Shown here piece after piece: positions 23,869 through 36,796 of a DNA stretch of 64,000 nucleotides. Within the stretch, counting starts at the first letter, position 1. Each line of letters starts with the position of its first letter. The notes below the pieces were generated by a model. That model was not told the DNA's origin. It saw only the letters and a program-made list of their open reading frames with translations, and did not search any database. Both the position numbers and the translations under genes were made by a program. This stretch comes from Octopus vulgaris (Eukaryota): contig OX597831.1 in the NCBI GenBank assembly GCA_951406725.2, positions 72,416,001 to 72,480,000 on the forward strand, given 5' to 3'.

Positions 23869-23950
23869 GCTGTGATGGCCGAGTGGTTAAGGCGTTGGAC
23901 TTGAAATCCAATGGGAGTTTCCCGCACAGGTTCGAATCCTGTTCACAGCG
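23869..23950 (+). tRNA. tRNA-Ser (anticodon TGA)
   Basis: 82-nt cloverleaf: GCTGTGA/TCACAGC, TTGGA-CTTGAAA-TCCAA, long variable arm, intact A and B boxes, G73. Confidence 0.95.
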
Positions 23951-26299: not shown

Positions 26300-26882
26300 T
26301 ATATTGTATCGTGGGTAGGCCAGAACAATGCGTAGTAAATGCAAGGCAAATCACAAGAAACAAATATATAAATTAATGAAGACTTACCTTGTATTCAATA
26401 TTTCGGGGTTATGACCCCATTTTCAAGAAATTAACGAATGTTGCCGATGTGCGTGTGTGTGAGCGTGTGTGGAGTGAACATGCGCAGAAAGGTATTCCTA
26501 TAGCATGCAGCTAGCTTTTTTGCGACTCTCTTCCGTTGTTGATTTTGGGTTTCTTTCGGTGTATGAGCATGGCCTCAGAGATTCTAAGGCTGCCTCTGTT
26601 CCGCTGTGTTGCCTTGATGTGTTCTGTGAATTCCCAGGCCTGGCATTTCCGTAGATGTTTCTTCGCGGAAGTGTCTGCCTGTATGTGTTCCTTAATGCGT
26701 ATATGCAGTTTTCTTGTCGTTCTTCCGATGTAGGATGCGCCACATTTGCCACAGATGATCTCATATATGACATAGATCCTCTGGCACAATTCAGGATCAT
26801 TGACGGAGCAGTTCGATAATGTGCACTCCTCGGAGTAGTGAGAGGTGTTGTTCTTGGACAGAGTTTTTCTTAGGGTGTGCAC
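26300..26882 (-). mobile_element. Penelope-like element 3' fragment (GIY-YIG endonuclease plus pseudo-LTR)
   Basis: ORF 26511-26882: VIYEIICGKCGASYIGRTTRKLHIRIKEH...EAMLI..KKPKIN, followed by a hammerhead-like motif at about 26395-26432. Confidence 0.88.
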
Positions 26883-26924
26883 TATCTGTATGTCGAGTCA
26901 TACAGATAGTGTACATCGGCTCCC

Positions 26925-27790
<866 letters not shown>

Positions 27791-27794
27791 TTAT

Positions 27795-28556
27795 TATTCT
27801 GGACGAGGTAATGAGCAGGGTGACTACTCTCACTCAGAAGTGGGCCGAGAGAAAACTATCTCTGAAAGGTCGGGCAGAGGTGGCTTACGCGTATATCGCG
27901 TCTGTCATCTACTATCGCTTGACCGTCGTGCCTTGCCCTGGCAACCGTCCGATTATGCTGGAGCGTATACTCTTCCGCTTCTTGTGGAAAGGACATGTCC
28001 CGATGGTTAGGCGGTCTATCTGCTGTCAGCACTCGCTGCGTGGTGGCCTGGGAATACCGTGGTTGATGATGCGCAGACATGCACTGAGGCTACGACATCT
28101 CTAGTGTTTCCTTGATGGTGAACAGGTGTGGTTGCCGTTTGCCAGACATGTATTTCTGCAGCTAGTTTCTTCAATTGAGCTGCAGTCATGGGTACAACAG
28201 AGACTGAGGGGGAGCATTTGGAAAGTGGAATGTCTTCAAGCGCTCACAGCCCTCAACCAATCGGACAGTGTGATAGGTGGAACATCCACTTTAGCCTTTT
28301 ATAGAGGATTAGTGGGGGTAAAGTGCGACGATGTTCATGGGGAGACCTTGGCTATCGAAGATAAGCTAGTCGCTCTTTTCCAGAGAACTTTCGGGTCGGG
28401 ACCGATGGATAATTTCCAAAAATCTCAGGCCTGGCAGTGCTACCGGGGAGCTTTGCTTGTCCGAGATAAATTTTACAGGCACGGAAGTGCCGTCAGCCAA
28501 GCATACCCGGGATGCGCGCAGGACGACGAGAAGGCCCTGCATGCACGCGTCCAGAA
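27795..28556 (+). mobile_element. Tx1/L1-clade LINE ORF2 fragment
   Basis: KWAERKLSLKGRA...FRFLWKG...RGGLGIP (post-RT region) and a degenerate zinc-finger-like segment near 28430-28545, with in-frame stops. Confidence 0.8.
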
Positions 28557-28688
28557 ATTTTGGGGAGGTGGTAGTTAATTTTGTTGATCCCAAAAGGATT
28601 TGAGCTCAGAATGGAAAACTGGAAGAAATATCGCACTGCATTCTGTCCGACTCATTAACAAGTCTGTCGGTAGCTTTTGCTATATATA

Positions 28689-28949: not shown

Positions 28950-31000
28950 ATGCGCTGGCGTGGCTTTGATACAAAATCTCCGCCTTCAACCACCCCTTAT
29001 TAACTGGCCTCTCGCTTCTCTTGGGCTGACGCCGCGCTTGCAAGCCCCTTTCGACTATGCAAAAGAGTCTTCGAGCCCGAGTCAACCGGAAACTTATTGA
29101 CGGCAACGTTTCCACCGCGATGCGCGTGCTAGCCTTTTGCTAGTCCTCGCCCCCACATCGGACGTTCTCTCCGTCTGAAATATCAAGACCCTGAGCGAGA
29201 TACGGCTTTGACAGTGACCGATGATGACGTTGCTGCTGCCGTGAAATCGTCCCTGGGAACAGCAGTGGTAGAATTGATGGCCTGCGACACGGCCACCTTA
29301 AAGATTTAATCTTACCAAATTCCGCCGAGGTGGAAGCGGGTGGGGTGGGGGGGGGGCGCACGCTTGCTCCGATCTATCATCACTTTGACAGACAGATTTC
29401 TTCACGCGGACCTTCCTCGCCACGACCGCGATCTTCTCTTCTAAGCCAACTTAATTGCGCTGAAGAAGAAAGACGGAGGCATACGTCCTATAGCAGTGGG
29501 AAACGTCTTTCGTCATCTTGTGGATAGGTTAACTTGCAGATCAGACCTGAGTGAAGCGCTCAGCCCTGTCTAGTTGGGGGTGGAAGTCAAGTGTGGCTGT
29601 GAGGCTGCTGCCCATGCTGCCAGATGTTTCATACAGCAAACACTTACCTCGTCACTTTGCTTCCAACTGAAGCTGGACTAAAAAAAAACGCCTTCAACAG
29701 CGCCAGACGCGACCACATCATGGAGTCATGTCTAAGACGTGCCCCCTCATTATACTCACTTACATAAATCTCCTCTGGTACAAACAGTTTACTTAGAGCT
29801 GCTGATAACAGGATCGCTTCTTCCACAGGTGTCCAGCAGTGACCCTCTTCGTCCGCTCCTATTTGCGGTGACTGTCGACAACGTTGCCCGATCGATCCGC
29901 CCACCCTTCAGTATCTGGTACTTGGATGACGCAACCCTATGTGGCCCTGCTGAGTCTGTTAGGGAGATTCAGCAGATTATTCCATCCCTAAAGCTTCTCG
30001 GGCACGAGATCAACCCGTCCAGTTGGAGGTGATTAATGTGAGCTATGGTGAGGCCGAATTGCGAGACGCCGTACTCAGCATCCAGTCCGTCTTGGCGGGG
30101 CCTCCGCTAACACCTAACGGCGCTGTCCGCATCCTTGGCTCCTCAATCCCCCCGAAAGCCATAACAGAGTGCCTGGACACCAAACCTGCGGACTTGTGCA
30201 GGATGACCGAAAGACTGAACCTCATTCAAGCGCATCCGGCGCTCTTCCTCTTGAGGAATAACTTCACTCTGCCTAAGCTCCTTTTATCGTTACGCGGTGC
30301 GCTATGTCACCTTCTCAGAGATCGCTTCGGTGATTTCGATAACACCATCCAACGCTGTGCCGAACTGATCAATTCTGGCAACGCCGGCTGGAAGATTCTG
30401 TGGCTTTGGTCTCCAGTCTGCAGTGAACCTGGCTCTGCCTGCCTATCTTTCATCGATCTCTTTCAGCCTGCATCCTCTTCCTGTAGCCTTAACGCAAGCC
30501 TATTTCCTCCACACAGAATAATATAAATGACGCGGTTGACTTCCTGTCTCCACCACAGGGACGGTAAGCGCCCCAACGAGACAAACTTCTTCCCATTCGA
30601 GGGAGGCAGATCTCTAGTTTGGGATGCGACGAGCAGCGACACGTTCTTTGGCTCCAACCTTGCAGCATCGGCCGCAAACCCTGGTGTCGCAGCCCGTAAC
30701 GTGGAGGAGAGAAAAATCAATAAATAAAAGAGCCTGGCCGGCCGCTATCGGTTTGTGTCGGTCGCCATCGAGACGTCGGGTGTTCTAGGACCCCGTACTA
30801 TCGATTTCCTCCACAAAATAGGAATATTGGCGACCCGTTGAAGAAATGAGCCCCGCGATCTGAAATGGCTGCTGCAGGGAGTGTCACTGGCCATTCTACG
30901 CGGCGACGCCACCGTGATCATTACCGAGAGGCGTGGCTGGGCATCCCACTCGTTCTGATATATGTAGCTCATTGCCTCTCCTCCTTCATCGTCTGCTGGT
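28950..31000 (+). mobile_element. CRE-clade-like non-LTR retrotransposon (RT plus RLE), decayed
   Basis: Frameshifted motifs DGLRHGHLKDL, KKKDGGIRPIAVG, CGCEAAAHAAR, NAFNS, GVQQ-DPL.PLLF, WYLDD, DGKRP...SLVWDAT, VAIETSGVLG, SLAILRG. GC-rich island. Confidence 0.82.
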
Positions 31001-31114
31001 GTACCCACCTGCCTTTTTCTTTCTTTTTTCCTCTCTCATCTATCTTCTTTCTTGTTCCTTTGACACAGTCACTCAAATCAAGAAATATTTTCAACCAAGC
31101 CACTTTCGTTTCCT

Positions 31115-31196
31115 GTTGTGATAGCCGAGTGGTTAAGTCGTTGGACTTCAAATCCAACAGGCTATACCTGCACAGGTTCGAATCCTGTTCACAGCG
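31115..31196 (+). tRNA. Ser-type tRNA with TCA anticodon (possible UGA suppressor or young pseudogene)
   Basis: 82-nt 7/5 cloverleaf, anticodon TCA at 31148-31150, paired variable arm CAGG/CCTG, intact B box, G73, T-run terminator at about 31214-31221. One D-stem mismatch. Confidence 0.75.
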
Positions 31197-31558
31197 ACAA
31201 ACAGTTTGCATCCTTTTTTTTCCTTGTCAGAGTTCTTTTTTAACGAATCTTATACATTAGAAAATTAGAAATGATTTTGGTCATTCCAATTTCTGTGGAT
31301 AGCTGAATTTAAAATACTGTATATTATTCAAATAAATTACCTCTGTTGATATACGCATGGACATAATTCTGTGTCTCTGTCTTCGTAAGTCCTTATGGAT
31401 TTTGGAATAAACTTTTGTCTGCTTTGTTAATTGTAGTTCTACATGAATGCTCACATTCAATGTCTAACGCATATACTATGCAAAAGTACATCATCATTTA
31501 CTTGTCTGGATATAGAGACAGAAATTAAATATTCTGAGAAAAGTGTAACTTAACCGCA

Positions 31559-31635
31559 GCTGCGATGGCAGCGTGTTTAAATCGTTGAGTTTAAGTCGTT
31601 GAGCCAACGAGACTATTCTGCAGAGTTTCGCAGCA
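31559..31635 (+). pseudogene. Highly degenerate tRNA-Ser remnant
   Basis: GCTGCGATGGC...TCGCAGC acceptor ends retained, interior rearranged. Confidence 0.55.
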
Positions 31636-32050: not shown

Positions 32051-32132
32051 GCTGTGATGGCCGAGTGGTTAAGGCGTTGGACTCGAAATCCAATGGGATT
32101 TTCCCGCACAGGTTCGAATCCTGTTCGCAGCG
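32051..32132 (+). tRNA. tRNA-Ser (anticodon CGA)
   Basis: 82-nt cloverleaf with TTGGA-CTCGAAA-TCCAA, intact boxes, downstream T run. Confidence 0.95.
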
Positions 32133-33335: not shown

Positions 33336-33471
33336 TATGTTTCAACGCATAAATTCACTCTATTTTGCAAACCAAATTCAAAAACAAAAAGAATATCGAC
33401 TCCACTTTATAGTCAAGACTAGACACACGGTCTCCGAAATAATATTTTCAGGAAACTGTCTGTTCTGAGCT

Positions 33472-33553
33472 GCTGTGATGGCCGAGTGGTTAAGGCGTTG
33501 GACTTGAAATCCAATGGGTTATTCCCGCGCAGGTTCGAATCCTGTTCACAGCG
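33472..33553 (+). tRNA. tRNA-Ser (anticodon TGA)
   Basis: 82-nt cloverleaf, intact boxes, T run at about 33574-33580. Confidence 0.95.
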
Positions 33554-34999: not shown

Positions 35000-35720
35000 T
35001 TAGGTATGTTTCGACCAAAGATTGGTCCAGGCCATGTCTAACTTAATAGCACCATCTGATAGGATTATCTAAATCTTGTTTAAGTCAAGTTTTGTTTATA
35101 GTCAATTCAAGTAGTGAGTTTTTGTTGGGTGAGTTGTATCCAATTATGGGTGGCTTATCTGGTAATCCTTGAAGGAATCTATCCAGACTCCGTTTAAAGT
35201 TGATGAGATCCTTTTCCTCTTTGATCTCTTTCGGGACAATGTTAAATAGGGCAGGGCCTGTTGAGGAAAAGAAATTATGTTGCAGTGTACATGTATGCTG
35301 TGATCTTGAATTGGGCAGAGGACGTATGGCCCGTGGTCCCAGTCTTGGATGAACCTTGAAGCTAATGTTCAGGTCGTTTGGGCAAAGTTGGTGGTATATT
35401 CTCCACATCGTACAAATGATGTACCGCTCACGGCGACGCTGGAGAGAGTAGAGTTTCAAGGCTTTAAGGCGGTCCCAATAATCGAGAGCAGCCATGCCTT
35501 CAATTCGTTTAGTGAGTGCCCTCTGGGGTGACTCAATCCTCGAGATGTTTTGTCTTGTATGGGGAGACCACAGTGGGCAGCAGTATTCGAGGTGTGGCCG
35601 TACAAAGGAGGAGAAAAGTGGTATGATGACACCTTGTTCTCTGGACCGGAAAGTTCTTAAGATCCAGGAACTTATCCTACGAGCTATATCGACCTTGTTG
35701 TTGATGTGTGCACTCCAACT
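35000..35720 (-). mobile_element. CR1-clade LINE 3' fragment
   Basis: FVRPHLEYCCPLWSP and LDYWDRLKALKLYSLQRRRERY...FKRSLDRFLQGLPDKP. Confidence 0.88.
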
Positions 35721-35987
35721 GTATGTATGTATGTATGTATGTATGTATGGATGGATGGATGGATGGATGGATAAGTGTATGTATATATATACAACGGGTT
35801 TCCAAACAGTTTCTGTCTAATAATATCCACTCACAAGGCATTGGGTTGTTCGGAGCTAAAGTAGACGACATTTGCCCGAGGTGTCGTACTGTGGGATTGA
35901 ACCTAAAGCCACATAATTGCAAAGCGAGCTTATTAACCACACGGCTACTGACATTAGATACTTTAAGAAAAGTATAGCACCGCTGTA

Positions 35988-36070: not shown

Positions 36071-36796
36071 GTCGCCTGAAATTTTCCTCAGTTTTCCTCA
36101 GAAATGAAGTCGATAAAAATGAAGTCGATAAAAATGAAGTCGATAAAAATAGGAATATGTTGCTCGATTCAATATTAAACTCGATCAGCCAATACGAACG
36201 GAAATCGAGGACTACATAATCAAATATATCCCTCTATGTACTCAGCTAGCCTATCACCAAAGACGTTCCGGCAGAGACCATCCCTTTCGTTTTTCTTTTT
36301 TCTAGACTAAACCCAACAGACTTTTTATGGAGATTTCCATGCTATTTCTAGCAAGTAGAGTGACCGCTCAGAGGCCTCATCGCTGGCTCGATATTGTTGT
36401 TGTTCATGATGATGATGATTATGTTGGTGATGGTGATGCTTATAATGACAACGATGATAATGGTGTGGATGCTGATGATAATGATGACGGTTATGATGGT
36501 GAAGATGAGGATAATACTGAATGAGGAAATGATGACAGCAATGGAGATCCTGGTGGTGATGACGACGTTGATGAAGATAGTTGTGTTGGTGATGGTGGCG
36601 ATGATCGTGGTATTTAATGGTGAAGAATCGAATAACACGAATCACCGGTTTCATAAATTGATTTCAATATGAATGTTAAGAGAATATATACACACGCGAG
36701 GGAGAGTGCATACATACAATATATAATATGATATAATATCAAGTATATATACCAAAAAACCAAGGGTTTTAAAAAAAAGAAAAAAAAGTTAACCAG

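Follow-up and report, generated by a model that had tools for sequence, protein, structure and literature searches.

In fission yeast, a single G35C change converts a tRNA-Ser with a sound body into a working opal suppressor, which comes to depend on Trm1 and La once misfolding changes are added, as described in the accessible text of bioRxiv 10.1101/2023.04.12.536578. For yeast tRNA-Ser, the accessible part of PMC6827378 gives miscoding of 0.4% with G9A versus 5.2% with G26A, an ochre suppressor that is weakened by G9A and still suppresses weakly, and a complete loss of function when C11:G24 or the variable-arm pairs are inverted. Anticodon variants, including UGA suppressors, are already catalogued in humans, and isotype switches in nematodes; the human nonsense-suppressor variants in the portion of PMC11212642 available to us include Arg-TCG-6-1 G36A (UGA) and Ser-AGA-2-3 G35A. 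The eukaryotic selenocysteine tRNA is distinguished by a 9/4 fold and a 6-bp D stem (PMC5330540, accessible text). A literature search that covered few subscription papers found no report of a tRNA opal suppressor in octopus or other cephalopods, nor of selenocysteine UGA readthrough in octopus. Here we analyse a serine-type gene with a UCA anticodon, hereafter the TCA gene, in a 64,000-nt stretch of Octopus vulgaris DNA (the window).

A serine-type gene with anticodon TCA

ARAGORN identified five tRNA genes across the window:

23869..23950, forward strand: intact tRNA-Ser(TGA), 68.5 bits (ARAGORN, Rfam)
31115..31196, forward strand: the TCA gene, with a Ser(TGA/CGA)-family body, 7/5 fold, 82 nt, G73 (sequence, ARAGORN, Rfam)
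32051..32132, forward strand: intact tRNA-Ser(CGA), 64.9 bits (ARAGORN, Rfam)
33472..33553, forward strand: intact tRNA-Ser(TGA), 67.1 bits (Rfam; ARAGORN places the start at 33471)
starting at 36796: tRNA-Glu(ctc) (ARAGORN)

The preliminary description of this locus had proposed a serine tRNA body with a UCA anticodon, and its sequence and coordinates agree with ours. ARAGORN reads the anticodon as tca, and the Rfam tRNA model RF00005 matches the gene at 54.8 bits (E 4.9e-9), far beyond chance and 10–14 bits lower than the three Ser neighbours. The closest relative is the Ser(TGA) gene at 33472..33553, with 10 differences, and the TCA gene departs from all three Ser neighbours at nine positions (numbered along the gene: C2U, G9A, G24U, G35C, U44C, G45A, loop 48, loop 52 and C55U). 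The alignment confirmed the G9A change, the C11-U24 mismatch and the altered variable stem described earlier, and added C2U, U44C and two variable-loop changes that had been overlooked. The elements of the gene are as follows:

31122..31132, forward strand: A box, fitting TRGCNNAGTGG despite G9A at 31123 (sequence)
31124..31139, forward strand: D arm, with the C11-U24 mismatch at 31125/31138 (sequence, comparison with paralogues)
31148..31150, forward strand: anticodon TCA, its middle base 31149 being position 35 (run contigs)
31158..31170, forward strand: variable arm, with U44C, the compensatory G45A and C55T (G-C to A-U) and two loop changes (alignment)
31175..31185, forward strand: B box GGTTCGAATCC, the same as in the neighbours (alignment)
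31214..31221, forward strand: run of eight T, Pol III terminator-like, starting 17 nt past the gene end (sequence)

All near-universal positions are intact (12 of 12 scored), as are A36-A37-A38 and the T arm. Scored against what we take to be the Pol III box and terminator consensus, with TRGCNNAGTGG presumed for the A box, the A box, B box and T-run terminator are all intact, which bears out the earlier account of the latter two. The three pairs of the variable stem are preserved by a genuine double change, G45A with C55T. A 10-nt A/T-rich motif lies about 30 nt upstream of both the TCA gene (~31084-31093) and the 33472 gene (33441-33450), and reflects either common descent or a TATA-like element.

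Farther upstream and elsewhere in the window we noted the following:

30546..31062, strand not assigned: old dispersed repeat with 72-81% identity to its copies elsewhere, stopping some 50 nt short of the TCA gene
35085-35816, reverse strand: open frame
26511-26897, reverse strand: open frame
27637-28578, forward strand: open frame

The repeat, in sequence that is GC-rich from about 29000, returned 445 candidates, the best 40 of which scored at 72-81%, and its frames are broken; to us they recall a non-LTR retrotransposon. A role for it as a tRNA-targeting element was rejected, as none of 11 other copies lies within ~1.5 kb of a tRNA. The three open frames resemble retrotransposon protein fragments, and Pfam gave no domain in the two tested; a Pfam search of four frames near the TCA gene likewise returned no domain.

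The ARAGORN label for the TCA gene is SeC, assigned from the anticodon. Read as a divergent selenocysteine tRNA, the gene would account for its TCA anticodon, G73 and long variable arm. Its 7/5 fold stands where a 9/4 fold (13 bp of acceptor and T stem) is required, and its D stem has three positions, one of them mismatched, against the required 6-bp stem with a 4-nt loop. The selenocysteine model RF01852 scores it at 43.1 bits; this is below the cut-off, 47, and no different from ordinary Ser genes. The true tRNA-Sec genes in this genome reach 72–77.7 bits. These comprise two identical genes on C24, 57 kb apart on opposite strands (L031 and L032, both 77.7 bits), and a third on C3 with two changes (L033, 72 bits); three weaker Sec-like copies reach 51-60 bits (L034, L035, L036). 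In the C24 gene the T stem is 4 bp and the D stem long. Structure thus refutes a tRNA-Sec identity, whose probability we consider negligible, in line with the preliminary description, which had set it aside on the same grounds. The label of such genes as Sec by ARAGORN is a known false positive, with 55.2 predictions per Sec-using metazoan genome versus 2.3 for Secmarker (PMC5330540, accessible text).

We searched the 2.8-Gb genome (227 contigs) for relatives of the TCA gene. The only exact match was the gene itself, and the next-best matches were Ser genes at 89% and below (best 40 of 101 candidates scored). Identity to the Ser(TGA/CGA) paralogues is 83-89%, and judged by its sequence the TCA gene belongs to this family by descent. 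A 30-letter family pattern spanning the D and anticodon arms, with the anticodon left free, occurred 39 times in the genome and never in the control, with anticodon counts of 25 TGA, 9 CGA, 1 TCA, 1 TGC, 1 CAA and 2 TAA. The genome-wide count of Ser bodies with TCA, among these 39, is therefore one. Searching for further TCA Ser genes with a 13-mer around the anticodon yielded 38 matches versus 39 in the control, and the 20 of these 38 checked with relaxed ARAGORN contained no tRNA. The two TAA matches, on C6, were set aside as parts of a truncated inverted duplicate; we take the fragment to resemble Leu(TAA). It lies at the centre of a long perfect inverted duplication (C6:56042450-56042820, L057).

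Among 36 distinct full-length Ser-body loci used for comparison, three have a non-Ser anticodon (TCA, CAA and TGC); besides the TCA gene these are two copies with evident damage:

C14:2506466 (L059): damaged Ser-body gene, anticodon CAA (Leu)
C13:4052302 (L058): damaged Ser-body gene, anticodon TGC (Ala)

Three such loci among 36 indicate that anticodon mutants in damaged copies are not rare in the Ser family; the CAA and TGC genes may be missense equivalents that arose by the same route. The changes at positions 2, 9, 35, 44 and 45 are absent from the other loci, and G24U occurs elsewhere only in two other damaged copies. A dense Ser(TGA) cluster at C30:1.52-1.61 Mb (L007-L013, L018, L020-L023, L030) holds several single-change and decayed copies, including another with G24U, and is a case of fast birth and death within the family.

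The anticodon base and the order of mutations

To verify base 31149, we inspected raw-data contigs from 8 of 24 sequencing runs. The anticodon of the orthologous gene was covered in four of the eight (X1, X2, X6 and X9), while X5, X11 and X14 had no coverage of it. X1, possibly the source run of the window DNA, provided a single contig at depth 60.9 with 0 differences over 30900-31600. X2, a different sample from a different study with the same species label (A), provided an 81-nt contig (31119-31199) at depth 9.5, also with 0 differences. An anticodon complementary to UGA is thus confirmed in raw-data contigs: C at 31149 in two runs means that C35 is real, and its presence in two samples from different studies means that it is no one-off. 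An assembly or sequencing error, the explanation under which the true base would be the G of the orthologues, could draw on the X2 contig having only 30 letters to the left of 31149, one below the 31-letter bridging rule; it is refuted by the X1 and X2 contigs together and is extremely unlikely.

The X2 upstream contig (depth 20.4) ends at 31148, one base short of 31149, and the depth then halves. From this we infer that X2 holds a second allele at 31149. No second allele is visible in X1, though contigs may drop variants.

Across the four runs, base 35 is C in the two with label A and G in the two with labels C and D. X9 (organism D) has one contig over 30960-31356 (397 nt) with 2 differences, one of them G at 31149, so that its gene keeps all other body changes of the TCA gene together with G35. 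In X6 (organism C) one contig, over 30960-31194, shows 5 differences, G at 31149 among them, and its gene lacks 8 nt from 31132, with much of the D arm gone, at depth 24.5. These genes are 98-99% identical to the TCA gene, and we regard them as true orthologues because the 3' flank (31197-31500) is single-copy and copies of the upstream repeat elsewhere are only 72-81% alike. A G at 31149 in X19 (organism F) was dropped, because the 53-nt piece that carries it has 7 differences and probably derives from a paralogue; of the tRNA itself, the X19 contig for 31296-31400 includes just the last 28 letters. A word share of 0.08 for organism F was likewise rejected as evidence of an identical tRNA, as the matches fall in the flank.

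Since X9 carries C2U, G9A, G24U, U44C and the variable-arm changes with G35, and parsimony with 33 TGA/CGA loci points the same way, these changes came first and G35C later. G35C is likely young by this comparison and, considering X2, probably still segregating. The organisms compared are very close relatives of one another, and their species labels may not mark clean lineages, because X2 and X6 have upstream variants in common and X9 agrees with the window at those sites. The variants concerned, at 31102-31106 in X2 (A) and X6 (C) and absent from X9 (D), represent either a shared polymorphism or loose species labels.

This order bears directly on the idea of a maintained, selected UGA suppressor, serving programmed readthrough or as a selenoprotein backup. 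The compensatory variable-arm pair, the intact signals and the recovery of the allele in two studies would fit it. The pair, in a stem that the preliminary description had called compensatory in appearance, is older than the anticodon change, and so carries no information on selection for a suppressor. In addition, the suppressor anticodon is not conserved, with TGA in both readable orthologues of other organisms; X2 appears to carry a second allele; the genome has no second copy; and true tRNA-Sec genes are present. Selection for suppression is thus largely refuted and very improbable. A singleton with TGA or decayed orthologues is what the preliminary description had named as counting against its own proposal, and we found precisely this: one genomic copy, TGA in both orthologues, and an 8-nt deletion in one. 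Of the proposed opal suppressor, the Ser body with UCA and the authenticity of the base hold, and maintenance as a suppressor very probably does not.

Folding, constraint and probable fate of the gene

ViennaRNA gave mean pair probabilities of 0.0 for the D arm, 0.2 for the anticodon arm and 0.02 for the variable arm of the TCA gene, compared with 0.55-0.63, 0.73-0.94 and 0.77-0.94 in the Ser neighbours; these predictions are made without modifications, Mg2+, chaperones or tertiary contacts. The cloverleaf is the lowest-energy fold, with no gap, in 17 of 27 distinct paralogue sequences. In the TCA gene it is not: forcing the acceptor, anticodon, variable and T arms costs 2.2 kcal/mol relative to the minimum-energy fold (1.8 at 20 °C). 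Resetting position 24 alone closes this gap. For the form with G35, which X9 carries, the gap is 4.8 kcal/mol, and G35C narrows it to 2.2. With respect to features of a functional tRNA-Ser, C11:G24 and G9 are replaced by C11-U24 and A9 and the computed favoured fold is not the cloverleaf, while G73 is present and the long variable arm can pair, though with a predicted probability of 0.02.

We then examined signs of constraint with a null model in which 7-9 substitutions were placed at random. A compensatory pair arose in 6-13% of trials; in 0.2-1.1% it came with no more than one mismatch and left the 12 near-universal bases untouched, under criteria that were chosen post hoc and for a gene of the intact-looking kind that gets noticed. 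The body of the TCA gene was therefore probably under some constraint, which suggests constraint during part of its history, most simply as a weak Ser(TGA) isodecoder. A second sign lies just upstream of the gene:

31102..31106, forward strand: three variable sites at -13, -12 and -9, common to X2 and X6 (run contigs)

These sites make up 3 of the 5 differences in the X2 upstream contig, a clustering whose chance is 0.005-0.007 for independent changes, although a single event may have produced all three. A transcription-associated mutation peak occurs 10-15 nt upstream of tRNA genes in other animals, and flank divergence is raised at inactive tRNA genes as well (PMC6130373, accessible text). 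By analogy, the upstream variants hint at transcription of the TCA gene.

Taken together, these data indicate that the TCA gene is probably a decaying single-copy paralogue of Ser(TGA) genes in which a mutation of the anticodon was tolerated, and that it yields little or no working suppressor tRNA. The preliminary description had mentioned early decay as a caveat, and given the singleton status and the TGA orthologues, one of them deleted, this is the better reading. The gene would have originated when a nearby Ser(TGA) gene was duplicated, the one at 33472 being closest in sequence. C2U, G9A, G24U, U44C and the variable-arm changes were gained while it read TGA, as X9 attests, and G35C would have followed by parsimony, probably as the segregating variant indicated by X2. 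Pol III probably still transcribes the gene, judging from the intact boxes and terminator, and the precursor is predicted to misfold at the D arm, with degradation or poor charging as the expected outcome. The X6 orthologue, whose D-arm deletion is present at depth 24.5, argues that the locus is dispensable; with some 30 other Ser(TGA/CGA) genes in the genome, a stop anticodon and an 8-nt deletion could both persist.

Rather unlikely, in our assessment, is a weak but real opal suppressor allele, unselected, of which a fraction folds, aided by modifications and La, is charged by SerRS through the long arm and G73, and inserts Ser at a low proportion of UGA codons. It retains that probability because the promoter, terminator and G73 are intact and the upstream variants hint at transcription; the variable stem is paired as well. 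The structure-sparing pattern of changes under the null model and the low chance of the upstream cluster (about 0.005-0.007 if three independent events) also favour it. Further support comes from the yeasts: G35C is the standard fission-yeast suppressor change, its alleles with additional misfolding changes can be rescued by Trm1 or La (bioRxiv 10.1101/2023.04.12.536578), and a yeast Ser tRNA with G9A still suppresses weakly (PMC6827378). Body changes acquired earlier, chiefly G9A, would dampen activity to a tolerable level, as engineered in yeast. Against this, G9A and G24U occur together and each is expected to cripple the tRNA, three arms are predicted to be lost, the D-arm deletion in an orthologue shows a dispensable locus, the upstream variants may have arisen together in a multi-base event, and a single copy would face the release factor.

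The corresponding population-level statement, a wild population with a Ser(UCA) opal suppressor at appreciable frequency, with at least one apparent homozygote and low activity owing to prior dampening by G9A and the D-stem mismatch, we consider unlikely. If true, it would be a natural instance of the two steps by which codon ambiguity was engineered in yeast. Weak activity would make the gene a natural example of the route, dampening first and anticodon change second, by which ambiguous decoding may become tolerable, with the mutation order readable from relatives, and carriers and non-carriers could be compared for UGA readthrough and Ser-for-Sec substitution. A silent gene, on the other hand, would be just another decaying tRNA copy with a mutated anticodon, one of three in the Ser family here, and of interest solely as an annotation trap, since ARAGORN says Sec.

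Comparison with known suppressor and variant tRNAs

The TCA gene shares with eukaryotic tRNA-Sec the UCA anticodon, G73 and the type of SerRS substrate, and differs in lacking the 9/4 fold and the 6-bp D stem. The parallel drawn in the preliminary description with positions 24 and 9 of E. coli tRNA-Trp involves different bases in a different body.

Segregating isotype-switch alleles in Caenorhabditis resemble this locus in their mismatch of backbone and anticodon, their species-specific occurrence and their attribution to the mutation load of tRNA genes; they are sense-to-sense switches, and the word "suppressor" is absent from the accessible text of PMC13010820. The human variants are likewise segregating single-base anticodon changes in one member of a redundant family, although Table 1 of PMC11212642, in the text available, includes no Ser-to-UGA allele. 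Human nonsense alleles stand at ~0.01% or less in the same portion of that article, whereas C35 is present in both covered samples of its species label.

The dampened yeast tRNA-Ser of Berg et al. 2019 is similar in that G9A, arising before or together with an anticodon change in a Ser(UGA)-derived body, makes that change tolerable (PMC6827378, accessible text), and the order of G9A before the anticodon change at the octopus locus, as reconstructed here, parallels those experiments. The yeast tRNA was engineered with one dampening change, whereas the TCA gene adds C11-U24, which may remove function altogether; the yeast test at 11:24 was an inversion, and the TCA gene has a C-U mismatch.

The G35C opal suppressor of S. 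pombe, tRNA-Ser(UCA), likewise has a Ser(UGA) parent, a single G35C and body changes that weaken it (bioRxiv 10.1101/2023.04.12.536578, accessible text). It is a laboratory allele with an intron and demonstrated activity, whereas the TCA gene is natural, intronless, bears eight further changes and is known from sequence. If active at all, the TCA gene would act like this fission-yeast suppressor, which we take to be the allele named sup3-e.
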